Origin: an uncultured Pirellulales bacterium
Lineage (GTDB): Bacteria; Planctomycetota; Phycisphaerae; Sedimentisphaerales; SM23-30
DNA length: 64,000 bases
Assembly (NCBI GenBank): GCA_964537505.1
Contig: CAZICK010000003.1
Span: forward strand, 13,321-77,320
Reading direction: 5' to 3'
The position numbers and the translations under genes are program-made. Of the stretch, positions 2,736 through 48,842 are shown piece after piece. The notes beneath the pieces are model-generated. The model saw nothing but the letters and a program-made list of their open reading frames with translations. It had not been told where the DNA came from and made no database searches. The number at the start of each line of letters is the position of its first letter. Positions within the stretch are counted from its first letter, which is position 1.

Positions 2736-4391
2736 ATGATTCAAGGTGAGCTTCCATTTTTCAATTTTGACGACAAACAAAAAGGGTTTTCACGACAACC
2801 GGACTTCTTCGATCCGAAAAAGTCGGACAGCGTTGCCCAACCCTCTGCAGCCAGCCCACAAGAATCTGACAAAAAAGCAACGGCAAACTCACTACCCGAT
2901 GTTTATTCGGTCACACAGCTTACACGCATGATCAGGCTGGCACTTAATGAGCATCTGCCGGCCAAAATTGTTCTGGCCGGTGAAATCTCCAACTGTAAAT
3001 TTCACGGCAGCGGTCATCTCTACCTCAGTCTGAAGGACGAAAACACGTACATCTCAGCGGTTATGTGGAAAAACGCTGCCGGCCGGCTCAAATTTCGCCC
3101 AGCCGACGGCATGGCTGTTGTTGCCACCGGCCGGGTCGATCTCTATGAACCGCAGGGTAAATATCAGTTTTATATCGACAAACTGGAACCGTCCGGGACC
3201 GGCGTTTTGGAGCTGGCATTTCGCCAGTTGGCCGAAAAACTGCGAAAAGAAGGCCTGTTCGATGATAGTCATAAAAAACCGCTGCCGAAATACCCATCCA
3301 CTATTGCTATCGTTACCAGTTCCACCGGCGCCGCCATCGAAGATATTGCCAAGACCCTCAACAGACGTTTCCCCGGCGTGAGAAAATTACTTTATCCGGT
3401 TGCTGTTCAGGGTTCGGGCGCCGCAGCGGAGATCGCCGGGGCCATCGCCGAGTTGAACCGGCGTCGCGGCGAGTTCGGCGGCATCGACCTGATGATCGTA
3501 GGTCGAGGCGGTGGTAGTATCGAAGACCTATGGGCCTTTAATGAAGATATTGTTGCACGCGCCATCTTCGCCTGCGAAATTCCTGTTATCAGCGCCGTCG
3601 GCCACGAAATCGATCTTACCATCGCCGATCTGGTCGCCGACTGTCGGGCCGCCACTCCCACGGCCGCGGCCGAGTTGGCCGTGCCGGACAGAACCGAGAT
3701 ACTGCAAAGTATCCGGCAACTCCAACAGCGGCTTTACCACAGCACCCGAGGTCGCTGGGAATCGGCCCAGGCGACCTGGCAAAACCTCTCAGACCGCCCC
3801 TTGTTTGCCCGACCGCTGGATATCCTGCGTATCAGCCGCCAGTTACTCGACGAAAAAACCGCTATCCTCTCACGGCATCTCAGCGAGTTGTTCCGTCGCA
3901 CAGGGCGCATCATCGAAAGCCACGCCGCCGCCTTACGAGTAATCGAGCCGCATATCACCCTGGCCCGCGGTCAGAAACGCCTGGCCGAACTGGAGCACCG
4001 ACTACAGTCGGCGTCCGGTAGCTATTATAAAGCCCGCAAAAATCAATTAGCCATCACCTGTTCGCACCTGCTCGGGACCAGGCCGTTATATCGCGTCCGT
4101 CAGCAGCGGAGCACCGTTGAGCATTTGACCGGCCGAATAGATACCGCCCGGCAGTCGTTCTGGCGGCAATTACATCAGCAGCTAAACGCTTACACCGGGC
4201 GTCTGGAAAACCTCAATCCCCGCGGTGTTCTGCAGCGCGGCTACAGCATCACCCGCCTGAAAAACACCATGGAAATCGTCGGCGGAAAAACTAAAATAGA
4301 ACCGGGCGATCTGTTAATCACCGAATTAGCCGGCAAAACGAATATTGAAAGTAAAGTGACATTATCTGTCAAAAGGGAGCAAAAAAAATGA
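2736..4391 (+). CDS. xseA: Exodeoxyribonuclease VII large subunit
   Basis: GEISN...SGHLYLSLKD OB fold, RGGGSIEDLWAFN, SAVGHEID, ATPTAAAE and the C-terminal LNPRGVLQRGYSI. Confidence 0.96.
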   Translation: MIQGELPFFNFDDKQKGFSRQPDFFDPKKSDSVAQPSAASPQESDKKATANSLPDVYSVTQLTRMIRLALNEHLPAKIVLAGEISNCKFHGSGHLYLSLKDENTYISAVMWKNAAGRLKFRPADGMAVVATGRVDLYEPQGKYQFYIDKLEPSGTGVLELAFRQLAEKLRKEGLFDDSHKKPLPKYPSTIAIVTSSTGAAIEDIAKTLNRRFPGVRKLLYPVAVQGSGAAAEIAGAIAELNRRRGEFGGIDLMIVGRGGGSIEDLWAFNEDIVARAIFACEIPVISAVGHEIDLTIADLVADCRAATPTAAAELAVPDRTEILQSIRQLQQRLYHSTRGRWESAQATWQNLSDRPLFARPLDILRISRQLLDEKTAILSRHLSELFRRTGRIIESHAAALRVIEPHITLARGQKRLAELEHRLQSASGSYYKARKNQLAITCSHLLGTRPLYRVRQQRSTVEHLTGRIDTARQSFWRQLHQQLNAYTGRLENLNPRGVLQRGYSITRLKNTMEIVGGKTKIEPGDLLITELAGKTNIESKVTLSVKREQKK

Positions 4392-44039: not shown

Positions 44040-45050
44040 TCATGAATTGGAAATCTCGACCAGTTTTTTTAACGTCTTTATTGCCTGACCACTGTCGATA
44101 CTCATATTTGCCATGGCAATTCCCTCTACCAGAGTGGGCGCCTTTCCGCCGGCCATAATCGCCGCTGCCGCGTTAAGCAACACAATATCCCGTCTGGGCC
44201 CGGCTATTTTGTTCTCTAAGATTGCCAGCGTGATCGCTGCATTGTCCTCCAGTGTCCCGCCGGTCAGATCACAAATCTCAGCCCGGGCCAATCCATATTC
44301 CATACAATCAACGGTATAGTTATTGAGTTGCCCATCGGCCAGTTCGACAATATCGGTTGGTCCGCATATACTAATCTCATCCATACCATCCCCGTGCACC
44401 ACCATGGCCCGTTTGACCCCCAGGAGTTTCAGCGATTCGGCCATTACCATCATCAGTTCCGGCTTGGCTACTCCGATTATCTGGGCATCGGCGCCGGCGG
44501 GGTTGGCCAGCGGTCCTAATACGTTAAAAACCGTCCGAAACCCCAATGCCTTGCGGATCGGCTGAACGTATTTCATCGCCGGATGATGACACGGCGCAAA
44601 CATAAAACCGATATTCGCTTCGTCAATGCAACGCTCGATCACTTCCGGGACCGCGTCGATCTTGACTCCAAACTGGGCCAGAATATCCGCCGAGCCGCAT
44701 TGACTGGTGATTGCTCTATTGCCATGCTTGGCTATCGCTACTCCCGCCCCGGCCGCTACCAGCGCCGCTGTAGTACTGATATTAAACGTCGCCTGTCCGT
44801 CACCCCCGGTCCCACACGTATCCACCAGCGGCCCAGCCTTGGGCCGAACCGGCACCGCATGGTCGCGCAAGGCACGGGCCATCCCCGCCACTTCCTGGGC
44901 CTGCTCGCCCTTGGCCGCCAGCGCCGTTAGAAACCCGGCAATCACAACCTCTGTGCACTGACCGTCCAGAATTGCATTCAGCGACTCATGCGCCTGCTCA
45001 AACGAGAGGTCTTCTTTCCGTAATATCTTTTCCACCAGTTCCCGCAACAT
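44040..45050 (-). CDS. trpD: Anthranilate phosphoribosyltransferase
   Basis: DTCGTGGDG, TFNIST, KHGNRAITSQCGSAD, RTVFNVLGPLANP. Confidence 0.97.
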   Translation of the reverse strand: MLRELVEKILRKEDLSFEQAHESLNAILDGQCTEVVIAGFLTALAAKGEQAQEVAGMARALRDHAVPVRPKAGPLVDTCGTGGDGQATFNISTTAALVAAGAGVAIAKHGNRAITSQCGSADILAQFGVKIDAVPEVIERCIDEANIGFMFAPCHHPAMKYVQPIRKALGFRTVFNVLGPLANPAGADAQIIGVAKPELMMVMAESLKLLGVKRAMVVHGDGMDEISICGPTDIVELADGQLNNYTVDCMEYGLARAEICDLTGGTLEDNAAITLAILENKIAGPRRDIVLLNAAAAIMAGGKAPTLVEGIAMANMSIDSGQAIKTLKKLVEISNS

Positions 45051-45070
45051 AATTTACTTCCTTAAAAATA

Positions 45071-45100
45071 TTAGCCACAGAGGCCACAGAGTTCACAGAG
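45071..45100 (+). repeat. Left inverted repeat TTAGCCACAGAGGCCACAGAGTTCACAGAG
   Basis: Three 9-bp-spaced CACAGAG units; contains the GxxExxY stop codon (45093-45095). Confidence 0.92.
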
Positions 45101-45458
45101 ATATTCTTTTGACACCATCAACAAGCCTTGCTTCACCAAAATTGATTAGCAAAGCTCGCCTTAATCCAGTTGCTTTCAGATAAGAAAGCACCTGGGCGGT
45201 GGCCACTTCCGGTAGTTTTTGCACAGATTTTATCTCCACCACAACTTTTCCTTCCACCAACAAATCTAGTTTCTGTCCCTGAATGATACAGTCTTTGTAT
45301 CTCACGTCAACAGCAACCTGTCGCTGGTATGCTATTTCTTCAAGCGAAAATTCGTGACAAAGTGCTCCCTCATACACCGATTCCAGAAGACCCGGTCCCA
45401 AAACGCGATGCACTTCTATCGCAGCGCCAATTATTTTTTTAGTTAAATCATCACTCAT
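45093..45458 (-). CDS. GxxExxY protein (PD-(D/E)XK nuclease superfamily)
   Basis: GPGLLESVY (GxxExxY), LDLLVEGKVVVEIK, AQVLSYLK...LLINF. Confidence 0.93.
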   Translation of the reverse strand: MSDDLTKKIIGAAIEVHRVLGPGLLESVYEGALCHEFSLEEIAYQRQVAVDVRYKDCIIQGQKLDLLVEGKVVVEIKSVQKLPEVATAQVLSYLKATGLRRALLINFGEARLVDGVKRISL

Positions 45459-46278
45459 TAAAAATCATACTGTTGTTCAAAGCTTCCATATCTCTTGGAA
45501 ACAATTTAATCAATTCATATAAATGTTTGCGGAACTCATTATCCGTAAAGTATTCTTTGAACATAAGATAGAATATAAACAAGCTACATACACCAACTTC
45601 GACTATTGTCTGCACACACAACTTAAAAGGAACAGAATCAGGCGGTAAAAAATACTGATCTTCACCGTCATCCAAATTGAAATTACAAGTTGAGGCCATT
45701 CCATAAAAATTAGGATGCGCGCCATTATCGATTGTACGGTTGTATAATGTTGATACCACCTCACCCAGCTTTTTATTCTTCCTGTTTAAACTCTTGATTG
45801 CTTTACTATGGGAAAACACCTTTCTACATTGATCATTTGCGTCTGCGTTTTCTCCTCTACCCGACCATACAAGAAGCCTCTTTTTTGCTTTCCCAGACTT
45901 ATCATTATTGCCTGCCTTTGAATGATTATCCTCAATCGTAACATATTCTGTGTCCTCATAAATATGCAAAGCATATAGAGCGTTTTCCAAACATCCACGC
46001 ATAACCATATATGCCTCAACAACCTGTCCACTAGTAGCCAAACGAACTGCCCCTAAGTAAGCAGCACGACATCTGGTGACAAAATTTGGGAGCATATAAT
46101 CCTTAATATTGAAATGAATTTCCGCAAAACATAAAAAAAGCTTGTCAACCTCCCTAATAGCTTTAACAGGAAGCGTTTCTGAAAAATATTTAAAAAATGA
46201 AACATTGTTTGAATATGCGGATTTGAGAAATCCTGATACTGGTTCCTTTCCCCAATTGCTCGGATACTCGATATTCAT
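45451..46278 (-). CDS. Hypothetical protein, possibly HEPN-like/DUF5677-like
   Basis: 275-aa AT-rich ORF with MRGCLE and LYNRTIDNGAHPN (Rx6H). Its stop overlaps the GxxExxY start (ATGAGTGA). Confidence 0.65.
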   Translation of the reverse strand: MNIEYPSNWGKEPVSGFLKSAYSNNVSFFKYFSETLPVKAIREVDKLFLCFAEIHFNIKDYMLPNFVTRCRAAYLGAVRLATSGQVVEAYMVMRGCLENALYALHIYEDTEYVTIEDNHSKAGNNDKSGKAKKRLLVWSGRGENADANDQCRKVFSHSKAIKSLNRKNKKLGEVVSTLYNRTIDNGAHPNFYGMASTCNFNLDDGEDQYFLPPDSVPFKLCVQTIVEVGVCSLFIFYLMFKEYFTDNEFRKHLYELIKLFPRDMEALNNSMIFNE

Positions 46279-46406
46279 ACAACAACACCTTTTCGTATAG
46301 TTTAATTGTTCTGGTTCTTTTGTTTTCTTGAAAAAGCCGAAGGTAAAGCCAAACCCAAGCGTCTAATTATTTCCTTCTATGTTGCCATTGGTTATTTTTT
46401 AATTCC

Positions 46407-46436
46407 CTCTGAGTTCTCTGTGACCTCTGTGGCTAA
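46407..46436 (-). repeat. Right inverted repeat (rc TTAGCCACAGAGGTCACAGAGAACTCAGAG)
   Basis: The outer end contains the trpE TAG stop (46433-46435). Confidence 0.92.
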
Positions 46437-48568
46437 GTTAACAATTCAATGACATTGGCGATTATCTTCAGGCCAACGTTGTCCTGCAAGGTCAAAATCG
46501 ATTCGGGATGAAACTGGATCGAGGCGATCGGCAATTCCTTATGTGCCAGGGCCATTATTATTTTGTCCTCAGTCTCGGCGATAATATCCAGGCAATCCGG
46601 CAAGGCATCCTTTTTGACGTACAGGCTGTGATATCGCCCGCTGGAAAATGGATTAGCCACATTTTCGAATATCCCTTTCTGATTGTGATAAACCATCGAT
46701 TCCTTACCGTGCATTGGCGTGAGCATTACGCCGAGTTGGGCACCGAAATACTGGGCGATTCCCTGATGGCCCAGGCACACACCGAAAATCGGAATATTAC
46801 GCTTTACGGCTTGTCCGACCAATGTAGGTACTCCCAACTTTTCGGGCGTTTCCGGTCCCGGCGAGATAAACAGCAGGTCGGGCTTGATCTGGTCGAGCTT
46901 TTCCGGGTCGAACCCTTTGCGCAAGGTGATCACTTCCACCCCCGTTTGCCTGACGTAATTGGCAAGCGTATGCACAAAACTATCCAGATTATCCACAAAC
47001 AAAACGCGTTTGCCTTTGTTGATCTTTAAGTGACCCCCTACCGCTGAAATATCTTCATAGTCTTTTATGGTTGCCGCCTGCAGGAATGCCGACGCTTTTA
47101 TGCGTGTTTCTTCATCTTCCTCATTCGGGATCGAATCATACAGCAGCGTAGCGCCGGCCCGCACTTCGGCGACTTTATCATGCAGATGGATTGTTCGGAT
47201 AGTAATACCGGTATTTAATTGTCCGTCGAAAGTGAATAAACCTACGCATCCGCCGTACCATCCCCTGGCACTGTTTTCCAGGTTCTCGATGGTCTGCATA
47301 GCGATGGGTTTCGGCGCTCCGGTCAGCGTACAGGCCCACGTATGCGATAAGAACGCATCGAATATGTCACAATCATCCAGCAGAACGCCTTTCACGTGAT
47401 CGACGGTGTGAAACAATCGCGAATAACTTTCCACCAATCGCCGTCCAACCAGTTGTACCGTGCCCGGCACACACACCCGCGATTTATCATTGCGATCCAC
47501 ATCGGTGCACATCGTAAGTTCCGATTCATCCTTTTTGCTCGACAACAGTTCTCTGATCCGCTCGGAATCCTCCATGGGACTGCCGCCGCGCCTGATAGTA
47601 CCGCTGATCGGACATGTCTCCACTTCCCTGCCTTTCACACGCACAAACATTTCCGGTGACGCTCCGATGAGTTGTTCATCGCCCAGATTAATCAGAAAAT
47701 CATACGGACTGGGATTATTCTTGCGCAGACGGGCAAATATCTCCGACGGAAAATAACCGCACTTAACGCTGAACATCTGTGAAAGCACAACCTCAAAGAA
47801 ATCACCGCACCGGCAGCCCTCTCTTATCTGTTCGACTTTCCCGGCATACTCGCCTTCCTGATGATCACACATTATCTCCGTCGAAGAGATACCCCTGCTC
47901 ATTTCCTGTCGTTGGCCTGTTACGGGAACGCCCTCGGTACTGCCGCCGTGCAGACCGGTGAATTCATAAGAAAGCTTAAAGGCATTTTGTTTTTGACGAT
48001 CTATCGCCACCACGCGGTCCGGCAGAAACAGATGACAATCGGCACCCACTTTACTGCGGTCGTGTTTGAATTCGATCGGCTCAAACTGGAACACCAGGTC
48101 ATACCCAAACGCTCCGAACATGCTCAGATATTCATCGTCACAAGCCATCAAACTGCATATCGCCCGCAAAACCGAAAAAATACTCGGCTGTTTGCTGCGT
48201 TGTTCTTCCGGAAAATCGCTCGGCATGGGAATCACTTCCCCGGTAATCTCTTTGTCTGTGACTTCATAACTTTCCACATGCGGATTTCCCGCCACCGCCC
48301 CCAGCAGCATAGGCAGCATGATTTCCCCTCGCTCATTCAGAGCTCGCAAGGTAAAGCTCCTGCCCCGGCTGATCATCTCGATCGGCGGATCGATAAAACC
48401 GATATCCCATCGTGAATAGCGACCCGGGTAGTCATAGTCACTGGCTAAAACGCAACCTTTAGCCTGATCTATGTTCTTGTAAACATCTGTCAAGGCATCA
48501 GTTACGGCTACCTCCTCCTTGGTCCTGACAACTTTGATTCCGCCTTGAGTTGTAAATGTCTTCTGCAT
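46433..48568 (-). CDS. trpE: Fused anthranilate synthase TrpE(G)
   Basis: YPGRYSRWDIG, NPSPY, GASPEMFVRV, CPISGTIRRG, DVDRNDKSR, then the GATase domain (DSFVHTLANY, GVCLGHQ, QFHPESILT). Confidence 0.95.
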   Translation of the reverse strand: MQKTFTTQGGIKVVRTKEEVAVTDALTDVYKNIDQAKGCVLASDYDYPGRYSRWDIGFIDPPIEMISRGRSFTLRALNERGEIMLPMLLGAVAGNPHVESYEVTDKEITGEVIPMPSDFPEEQRSKQPSIFSVLRAICSLMACDDEYLSMFGAFGYDLVFQFEPIEFKHDRSKVGADCHLFLPDRVVAIDRQKQNAFKLSYEFTGLHGGSTEGVPVTGQRQEMSRGISSTEIMCDHQEGEYAGKVEQIREGCRCGDFFEVVLSQMFSVKCGYFPSEIFARLRKNNPSPYDFLINLGDEQLIGASPEMFVRVKGREVETCPISGTIRRGGSPMEDSERIRELLSSKKDESELTMCTDVDRNDKSRVCVPGTVQLVGRRLVESYSRLFHTVDHVKGVLLDDCDIFDAFLSHTWACTLTGAPKPIAMQTIENLENSARGWYGGCVGLFTFDGQLNTGITIRTIHLHDKVAEVRAGATLLYDSIPNEEDEETRIKASAFLQAATIKDYEDISAVGGHLKINKGKRVLFVDNLDSFVHTLANYVRQTGVEVITLRKGFDPEKLDQIKPDLLFISPGPETPEKLGVPTLVGQAVKRNIPIFGVCLGHQGIAQYFGAQLGVMLTPMHGKESMVYHNQKGIFENVANPFSSGRYHSLYVKKDALPDCLDIIAETEDKIIMALAHKELPIASIQFHPESILTLQDNVGLKIIANVIELLT

Positions 48569-48593
48569 TGTGTTTACTCCTGTTTTGCCAGAC

Positions 48594-48627
48594 AAAAAAA
48601 ACGCGGCCAACCTGATTTTCAGCCGCG
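48594..48627 (-). terminator. trp attenuator terminator
   Basis: CGCGGC...GCCGCG followed by T8 on the minus strand, between the leader peptide and trpE. Confidence 0.85.
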
Positions 48628-48657
48628 ATTTGGTTTATGAAAATACATGCCAGACCT

Positions 48658-48732
48658 CTAGTCGGCAGGCTCACGGCTGCGGCAACTGTGCCACCACCAA
48701 AAATACTGTACTTTTACGGTCGTTTGCGGCAT
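48658..48732 (-). CDS. trpL: Trp operon leader peptide, 24 aa (absent from ORF track)
   Basis: MPQTTVKVQYFWWWHSCRSREPAD* with three tandem TGG codons and an AGGAG RBS. Confidence 0.88.
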   Translation of the reverse strand: MPQTTVKVQYFWWWHSCRSREPAD

Positions 48733-48758
48733 TTCCGAACTCCTGTAAACCAGCATTC

Positions 48759-48787
48759 ATTAAACCACATCCGCCGCCCAAAGTCAA
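48759..48787 (-). promoter_or_regulatory. Sigma70-type trp promoter
   Basis: TTGACT-N17-TTTAAT with TG just upstream of the -10. Confidence 0.6.
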
Positions 48788-48842
48788 TAATAAAATCTCC
48801 ATTCTTCCGGCCGCCCTGCCATCGTGTTTTTATCGCTTATTG

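Follow-up and report, generated by a model that had tools for sequence, protein, structure and literature searches.

In enterobacteria and pseudomonads, doublets of repetitive extragenic palindromic (REP) sequences, the REPINs, occur together with REP-associated tyrosine transposases (RAYTs) (PMC3116915; PMC3337134; bioRxiv 10.1101/2021.07.10.451892), and the RAYTs have been described as non-jumping genes that keep to one genomic context (bioRxiv 10.1101/2021.07.10.451892). Here we analyse a 1,366-bp cassette that separates trpE(G) from trpD in a 64-kb stretch of DNA, called the window below, from an uncultured Pirellulales bacterium (assembly GCA_964537505.1, contig CAZICK010000003.1, positions 13,321 to 77,320 of the forward strand). 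The cassette carries a gene of the GxxExxY family and is enclosed by inverted arms built from heptamers in a 9-nt register. By analogy, we consider it moderately probable that this is a REPIN/RAYT-like system in which a PD-(D/E)XK nuclease serves as the repeat-associated enzyme. We describe its anatomy, the association of gene and arrays across genomes, their covariation, the placement at gene junctions, and the vertical retention and decay of the copy at trpE/trpD. The heptamer-array palindromic repeats apparently form a very widespread and undescribed class.

The Correia or NEMIS elements of Neisseria are miniature inverted-repeat transposable elements (MITEs) with terminal inverted repeats and TA ends but no transposase, lying between genes, being co-transcribed and forming hairpins that can be substrates of RNase III. 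The intervening sequences of 23S rRNA lie within the rRNA gene, are excised by RNase III and hold a small open reading frame (ORF) for the S23p or four-helix-bundle protein (TIGR02436, PF05635) within inverted repeats, and the free-standing homing endonucleases I-Ssp6803I and I-Bth0305I have the PD-(D/E)XK fold.

Heptamer arrays and the GxxExxY genes between them

The inverted arms of the cassette, 30 nt each (45071–45100 and 46407–46436), are complementary at 26/30 positions and identical over the outer 13 nt, which reproduces the preliminary description made from the sequence of the window. Each arm combines TTAGC with three heptamers that follow it in 9-nt register. Read on the minus strand, which is the coding strand here, the upstream arm (46407..46436, 5' in gene orientation) is TTAGC followed by CACAGAG GT CACAGAG AA CTCAGAG, and the downstream arm (45071..45100) is CTCTGTG AA CTCTGTG GC CTCTGTG GCTAA. 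The three CACAGAG units per arm noted before are thus present, with the innermost unit of the 46407 arm reading CTCAGAG and all remaining units of both arms reading CACAGAG. In the 64 kb, CACAGAGNNCACAGAG with at most one mismatch matches the two arms alone (4 overlapping matches; 0.02 expected). The segment is also free of transposase and integrase genes, as previously stated, and no transposase is found in the canonical units of about 420 bp described below.

The gene between the arms encodes a protein that matches PF13366 over residues 4–119 with 134.6 bits (cut-off 22; E 2.6e-39) and TIGR04256 with 135.5 bits (cut-off 35; E 1e-39). Conservation is complete at E26 and K77 and at least 90% at D65 and E75. 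The AlphaFold2 model (predicted local distance difference test score 93) has an alpha-alpha-beta-beta-beta-alpha-beta topology, its nearest solved folds being Cas4 SSO0001, MGME1 and lambda-exonuclease-like enzymes at a template-modelling (TM) score of about 0.5, with the catalytic domain of I-Bth0305I among the weak structural neighbours. A search of a defence library returned weak Cas4 matches, and no solved homologue is detectable by sequence. From model and residues together, GxxExxY is predicted to be a minimal PD-(D/E)XK nuclease fold with its catalytic residues in place. The family comprises 17,755 clusters at 50% identity (E ≤1e-3), among them proteins of about 275–295 aa with two tandem GxxExxY domains (P0353, P0354, P0357–P0359 and others). 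In the literature neither GxxExxY biology nor the repeat strings turned up, though curated database entries may contain remarks on them, and PF13366 appeared only in a catalogue line reading 'unknown; multiple transfers'.

Association with arrays was scanned in 80 loci of up to 20 kb holding GxxExxY relatives, with one genome per species. Proteins 62–77% identical to that of the window occur in at least 14 phyla, including Proteobacteria, Planctomycetota, Acidobacteriota, Verrucomicrobiota, Nitrospirota, Chloroflexota, Bacteroidota, Calditrichota and Desulfobacterota, and in two archaeal metagenome-assembled genomes. Among the 49 complete genes in this identity range, inward-facing arrays stand within 200 nt on either side in 42, one or more tight arrays (≤60 nt) are present in 44, and 29 have a CACAGAG array within 60 nt upstream together with a CTCTGTG array within 60 nt downstream, while shuffled loci gave 2 arrays in 415 kb. 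The canonical unit, of about 420 bp, begins with TTTAGC, two or three heptamers and 2–10 nt before the start codon, and its far end reads ...ATT TCT CTG TGA n CTCTGTG nn CTCTGTG GCTAAA. Across the class, arms hold 2–4 heptamer copies in 9-nt register under an outer cap resembling TTTAGC. The window version, with its 1,366 bp and second gene, is an atypical unit. The complete genome of Rosistilla carotiformis Poly24 encodes one of the GxxExxY proteins (P0023). GxxExxY genes can be present in several copies within one locus or genome (L060, L064, L073), and in L026 (1230–1700) a unit of about 170 nt, hairpin plus flank, stands in three tandem copies directly upstream of such a gene. In one species, a population polymorphism sets L353 and L354 apart from L349–L352, namely a 36-nt insertion within the second heptamer of the right arm (about 3368–3405), with ATCT at both borders and a small ACGTGC-TAC-GCACGT hairpin inside, which may be a different, tiny insertion element targeting the arm.

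The outer TTTAGC...GCTAAA belongs to the inverted-repeat consensus, and 28 units have unrelated flanks outside it. For the TA at both outer ends, the preliminary description had offered a target duplication or a part of the repeat; the latter holds, and the duplication is rejected as a general feature, the TA lying within the inverted terminus and many right ends reading GGCAAAA.

The heptamer changes with the protein. Genes less than 56% identical to that of the window carry other heptamers, still in 9-nt register, such as CGCAGAT, CGCGGAT, CACGGAT, CGCAGAG, CACAAAG, CACGGAG, GTAAATC and more, and at each locus the downstream array is the reverse complement of the upstream one. Arm orientation is constant, 5'-CACAGAG...CTCTGTG-3'. 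Beyond 500 nt from the gene, 17 CACAGAG arrays lie in 346 kb around genes of the CACAGAG type and 0 in 195 kb around genes of other types. Repeats and GxxExxY genes therefore do form a statistically associated unit, as had been proposed: the finding of 42/49 flanked genes and of 17 against 0 distant arrays, together with heptamers that co-vary with the subfamily, is the opposite of the lack of association that would have told against that proposal. Both positions of the spacer between heptamers are rich in purines, with complementarity of 56% and 29% against 37% expected, and deviations within heptamers go uncompensated in the opposite arm. Since the spacers are not kept complementary and the deviations are uncompensated, recognition of the word by a protein is favoured over a purely base-paired signal. 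A likeness of the termini to DnaA boxes (TTAGCCACA versus TTATCCACA) was dropped, CACA being absent from the other heptamer classes.

Scanned from the repeat side, with an exact three-unit pattern demanded on one arm, the viral and metagenome collections gave at least 120 stretches each. Among the matches listed, 140 metagenome arrays comprise 72 gene-less hairpins with loops of 6–290 nt, 41 arrays that stand alone or whose partner is degenerate, 19 too near a contig end for classification, 5 with a partner arm 300–3,000 nt off and no GxxExxY gene, and 3 directly adjoining a GxxExxY gene, the total of GxxExxY genes anywhere in the loci being 4 by a hidden Markov model scan; these class counts are biased by the requirement for three exact units on one arm. 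Gene-less hairpins greatly outnumber gene-bearing units. Hairpins or arrays are abundant in the contigs L149, L026 and L034. In L149, an IMG/VR contig of 14 kb, nearly all gaps between genes contain a hairpin with a constant AT-rich loop of about 21 nt, and this points to amplification within the genome. Three viral-classed contigs (L149, L110, L132) have arrays or hairpins in most intergenic gaps and no GxxExxY gene, and GxxExxY proteins are absent from the cultured phages of the annotated collection.

Hairpins also differ between related loci. At one orthologous junction a hairpin is present in L041 and none in L040. In L051 (5358–5446) and L070, both of Sideroxydans type, the GxxExxY gene is separated from its right arm by an 89-nt block. 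Made up of a substitute 'TCA CTT TGA' stop, a spacer, a left arm and a loop, the block turns the gene-adjacent arm into a separate hairpin when compared with L054, L058 and L059. All five of these loci lie just upstream of serS, a position shared by several Betaproteobacteria, while other Betaproteobacteria (L030, L031, L072) have in common one upstream of an lpdA-like gene.

The trpE(G)/trpD copy: placement, cargo and history

The arms of the window copy are fitted to the genes on either side. The fused anthranilate synthase gene trpE(G) (46433..48610, minus strand; chorismate-binding and glutamine amidotransferase parts) ends in a TAG (46433–46435) inside the upstream arm, and the last codons and TGA stop (45093–45095) of the GxxExxY gene (45093..45458, minus strand) are the first heptamer of the downstream arm. 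A 20-nt spacer (45051..45070, minus strand) with the trpD ribosome-binding site AAGGAAG then leads to the ATG of trpD (44040..45050, minus strand; anthranilate phosphoribosyltransferase), after which come trpF and nadD. The coordinates thus bear out the earlier statement that the arms supply both stops and adjoin the trpD ribosome-binding site. Gene callers give trpE(G) 711 aa from a start at 48568, a length equal to that in relatives without the cassette; because TrpE has 711 aa in all relatives compared, the TAG of the arm stands exactly at the native stop position. By bringing the trpE stop next to the ribosome site of trpD, the arms leave both trp genes unharmed.

The same seating recurs elsewhere. 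Of 32 canonical units, about 21 have their left end within ±4 nt of the point where a co-directional upstream ORF (≥90 aa) stops, and where a co-directional downstream ORF was called in these 32 units its start usually lies 6–30 nt past the right end, counts that rest on a crude ORF caller with some uncertain calls. The precise insertion at operon gene junctions, first noted for trp, is accordingly a wider property of the units. The CACAGAG strand is stop-free in all frames, so callers often over-extend GxxExxY ORFs upstream, and many predictions of 130–180 aa are probably N-terminal over-extensions through the array. The last heptamer (ACAGAGA/G) stands 2–10 nt before the GxxExxY start, at the expected Shine–Dalgarno position. 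In both the minimum-energy and the centroid RNA fold the arm stem closes the 1.3-kb cassette; it is plausible that the predicted stem would juxtapose the upstream stop and the downstream start and hide the ribosome site of the nuclease gene. Rfam has no family that matches the window, the cassette or any of 13 hairpin-rich loci.

Most of the segment (60%) is taken up by a second gene, ORF275 (275 aa; 45451..46278, minus strand), which the preliminary description had not named. It follows a 128-nt AT-rich leader from the upstream arm (46279..46406, minus strand) and overlaps the start of the GxxExxY gene by 8 nt. Its family is rare (112 matches), with the invariant residues R94, E98, Y179 and G186-A-H-P189, and is modelled confidently as an all-alpha fold that has no structural match in the PDB or among viral structures. 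No Pfam, NCBIfam or PADLOC family matches it, a sub-threshold resemblance to DUF5677 being all that appeared, and a HEPN-like reading of its R-x6-H stretch is not supported.

Homologues of ORF275 are also found at the trpE/trpD junction of L102, L103 and L108, where TrpD and TrpE are about 72–74%, the ORF275 homologue about 50% and GxxExxY 75% identical to their counterparts in the window. L102 and L103 also hold the GxxExxY gene, and the L108 contig stops within the ORF. In L102 the two genes form tandem units, the ORF275 homologue having its own pair of arms and being followed by GxxExxY and a further right arm. The middle arm of this layout is missing in the window, where ORF275 and GxxExxY overlap instead. 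The window copy is a composite, with a second repeat-bounded gene fused ahead of the nuclease gene, and the earlier suggestion that the cassette can carry cargo is borne out by the ORF275 homologue between its own arms in L102. An obligate pairing of ORF275 with GxxExxY is rejected, given these separate units and a 37% homologue outside any cassette.

Homologues of trpD place the host in Phycisphaerae/Sedimentisphaerales. The cassette is present on 17/17 contigs of the same species that encode the identical GxxExxY protein, and every contig with an identical trpD carries it. In L014, whose TrpD and TrpE are 97% identical, a 148-nt spacer stands in its place, in which the two arms, the first 40 nt or so of the leader and some 55 nt from the end of the GxxExxY gene are retained; 1,221 nt were lost internally, with TAAT microhomology at the deletion borders, and the arms are starting to decay. 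This spacer is a deletion relic and no empty site, and it means that at least some gene-less hairpins descend from gene-bearing units by deletion. L015 and L016, relatives at about 72–74%, have no cassette and unrelated spacers, that of L016 being a plain 79 nt. Empty alleles, by which the preliminary description proposed to recognise an insertion, are thus missing at the trpE–trpD junction of close relatives: the 97% relative holds a relic, and it is among the relatives at about 72% that some (L015, L016) lack the cassette. The GC content is 0.34–0.39 in the cassette and about 0.50–0.56 in the flanking trp genes. The cassette is foreign by composition and patchy among relatives, yet here it is old, vertically transmitted and under purifying selection, having stood at trpE/trpD since before the split of lineages whose trp proteins are about 72% identical.

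Two of the relatives have further repeat units at this junction. The trpE–trpD spacer of L015 (3756–4000, 245 nt; a 74% relative) has other units in 9-nt register, CACGGATTACACAGATT and GACAGGATTGACAAGATTCACGGG, which could be the relic of an element of a different class and would then suggest that the junction is a recurrent landing site. In L108 (2505–2575) the end of trpE, ...ACG TAG CCACAGAG, carries a solo heptamer identical to the window junction, with a complete new left arm 18 nt beyond it, an arrangement that suggests arm turnover at one site.

Upstream of the operon, about 40 nt before the trpE start (window 48590–48640, minus strand), lies a GC-rich stem CGCGGC...GCCGCG followed by a run of eight T. 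It is terminator-like and could be an attenuator. A trp leader peptide was rejected, as the 43-aa ORF further upstream of trpE (48671–48802) has no Trp codons. There is no Rfam match.

A proposed partnership of a resident nuclease with hairpins, and the alternatives

Two GxxExxY proteins are encoded on 18 and 8 contigs, respectively, and in each case the identical copies always sit in one genomic context, with no sign of recent jumping. Gene-bearing copies are thus not jumping within populations, and the actively homing cassette that the preliminary description envisaged finds no support in a unit that is old, vertical at its junction and confined, for identical proteins, to one context. The gene-bearing unit looks like a resident, non-jumping copy, and the numerous copies are the gene-less hairpins.

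In the REPIN/RAYT-like system that we favour, most natural copies would be short gene-less hairpins in intergenic gaps, with a minority enclosing a GxxExxY gene. The nuclease would recognise the heptamer arrays that belong to its class and cleave them or the DNA close by, and cutting would let host replication and repair copy, delete or re-assort the hairpins, whereas the gene-bearing copy would remain nearly immobile and be inherited vertically. Self-propagation of the cassette, as suggested before, and an action of the nuclease on the repeats are both putative. A broader proposal is more tentative: GxxExxY proteins may be the nucleases of an unrecognised, pan-prokaryotic class of mobile or semi-domesticated heptamer-array palindromes that insert where one operon gene stops and the next starts, capture cargo and spread into phage genomes, a nuclease-only counterpart of REPIN/RAYT with a new mechanism.

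Several points weigh against such a system. That GxxExxY binds or cuts the arrays, and so drives hairpin spread, is inferred. DNA joining is beyond a PD-(D/E)XK nuclease, and spread would thus depend on functions of the host. The arms could also be kept matched by gene conversion or by common descent instead of recognition by a protein. No clean empty site for a gene-bearing unit was found among close relatives, and no target-site duplication is visible in the 28 units. The 64-kb window has no hairpins and no further three-unit, 9-nt-periodic array of any heptamer beyond the cassette's own arms, and the viral-contig loci among the matches listed, 1.02 Mb with 153 arrays, contain no GxxExxY gene. 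To these is added the bias in the array class counts mentioned above.

The alternative that survives best, though we judge it unlikely, reverses the order of events: the hairpins came first, as host or otherwise mobilised palindromes of a terminator-, REP- or mRNA-stabiliser-like kind, and the gene is parasitic on them, a GxxExxY homing-type endonuclease cutting the loop and being copied in by repair through arm homology. The gene does always fit exactly into the gap between two arms and leaves hardly any sequence to spare, and the gene-less hairpins are far commoner and present where no gene is near. PD-(D/E)XK homing endonucleases exist, one of them a weak structural neighbour, and covariation of heptamer and protein fits target specificity equally well. 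Against this, arms of 25–30 nt are short as homology for repair copying, identical proteins were not seen in more than one hairpin or context, and the L014 relic is a gene-less hairpin derived from a gene-bearing unit. A stop codon built into the arm likewise implies long co-evolution, not repeated invasion.

Less likely again is an RNA-level element resembling an intervening sequence, in which the stem would be processed by RNase III or the nuclease and would regulate or uncouple the flanking genes, spread at the DNA level being due to something else. Both RNA folds close the cassette with the arm stem, the tight spacing of upstream stop and downstream start (±4 nt and 6–30 nt) is as expected for such a role, and the heptamer at the Shine–Dalgarno position would be sequestered in the stem. 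The uncompensated heptamer deviations and the spacers that are not kept complementary argue the other way, as do the arrays that occur singly and the lack of an Rfam match; the covariation of protein and heptamer would be unexplained unless the protein binds RNA.

That ORF275 and the nuclease are a resident accessory operon, a defence- or toxin-type pair with the repeats as autoregulatory operators and no mobility, is very improbable: the long vertical retention with intact reading frames, the 8-nt overlap of the two genes and the weak Cas4 matches in the defence library fit it, but the two genes are separate units in L102, ORF275 homologues occur without GxxExxY, canonical units hold the nuclease gene alone, no defence-system model matches ORF275, and the gene-plus-repeat unit recurs across at least 14 phyla, in contexts unrelated to one another, beside hundreds of gene-less hairpins.

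If the REPIN/RAYT-like system is real, a very large orphan family would gain a function and a testable substrate, and a common origin of junk ORFs and of odd repeats between genes, in Planctomycetota, Verrucomicrobiota, Acidobacteriota and Proteobacteria among others, would be explained. The covariation of heptamer and protein would amount to a natural specificity code that can be read experimentally, and the exact placement at operon junctions suggests how insertions stay harmless to essential operons.

Comparison with described systems

Described elements match the cassette in part. It is no integron gene cassette, as its locus has no integrase and its arms consist of heptamer arrays instead of attC sites. 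Like a transposon with terminal inverted repeats or a MITE it has such repeats, and it shows neither a target duplication nor a DDE, serine or tyrosine transposase. Cas4 and RecB-type nucleases are the closest profile and structural neighbours of GxxExxY, which differs from them in having no Fe-S cysteines, half the size, no CRISPR context and a TM score of only about 0.5.

Homing genes share with the cassette a lone nuclease gene among conserved genes and no recombinase. They are not known to need or carry periodic inverted arrays, and they have cognate empty alleles, whereas for the cassette an intact empty allele was not found in close relatives. The intervening sequences of 23S rRNA are similar as a small ORF in a long stem, patchy across phyla and tolerated in essential transcription units; the present cassette, however, sits between trpE and trpD in a window without rRNA, and its protein has a different fold. 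With Correia/NEMIS elements it shares terminal inverted repeats, intergenic hairpins, TA at the ends and the lack of an encoded transposase, but whereas in Correia elements the TA duplication is defined and the body, of 100–155 bp, is uniform, this family shows no visible duplication, has loops from 6 to more than 1,300 nt and includes a dedicated nuclease gene.

The closest likeness is to REPIN/RAYT. In both, short palindromes lie between genes in many copies, as seen here in contigs such as L149, L026 and L034 but not elsewhere in the 64-kb window; repeats in inverted orientation enclose the associated gene, the repeat class co-varies with the protein clade, and the gene copy is inherited vertically without jumping; an outer tag is present in each, GTAG in REPs and TTAGC here. 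The enzyme, however, is a PD-(D/E)XK nuclease of about 120 aa and not an HUH tyrosine transposase of the IS200/IS605 type, the arms are heptamer arrays in 9-nt register where a REP is a single imperfect palindrome, and GxxExxY genes, unlike RAYTs, can be multi-copy in one locus or genome. Because of this enzyme and these arms, the cassette resembles REPIN/RAYT in logic only and is not a member of that class, and, if our reading holds, it would represent a second, mechanistically different case of a long-lived partnership between repeats and an enzyme in bacterial chromosomes.

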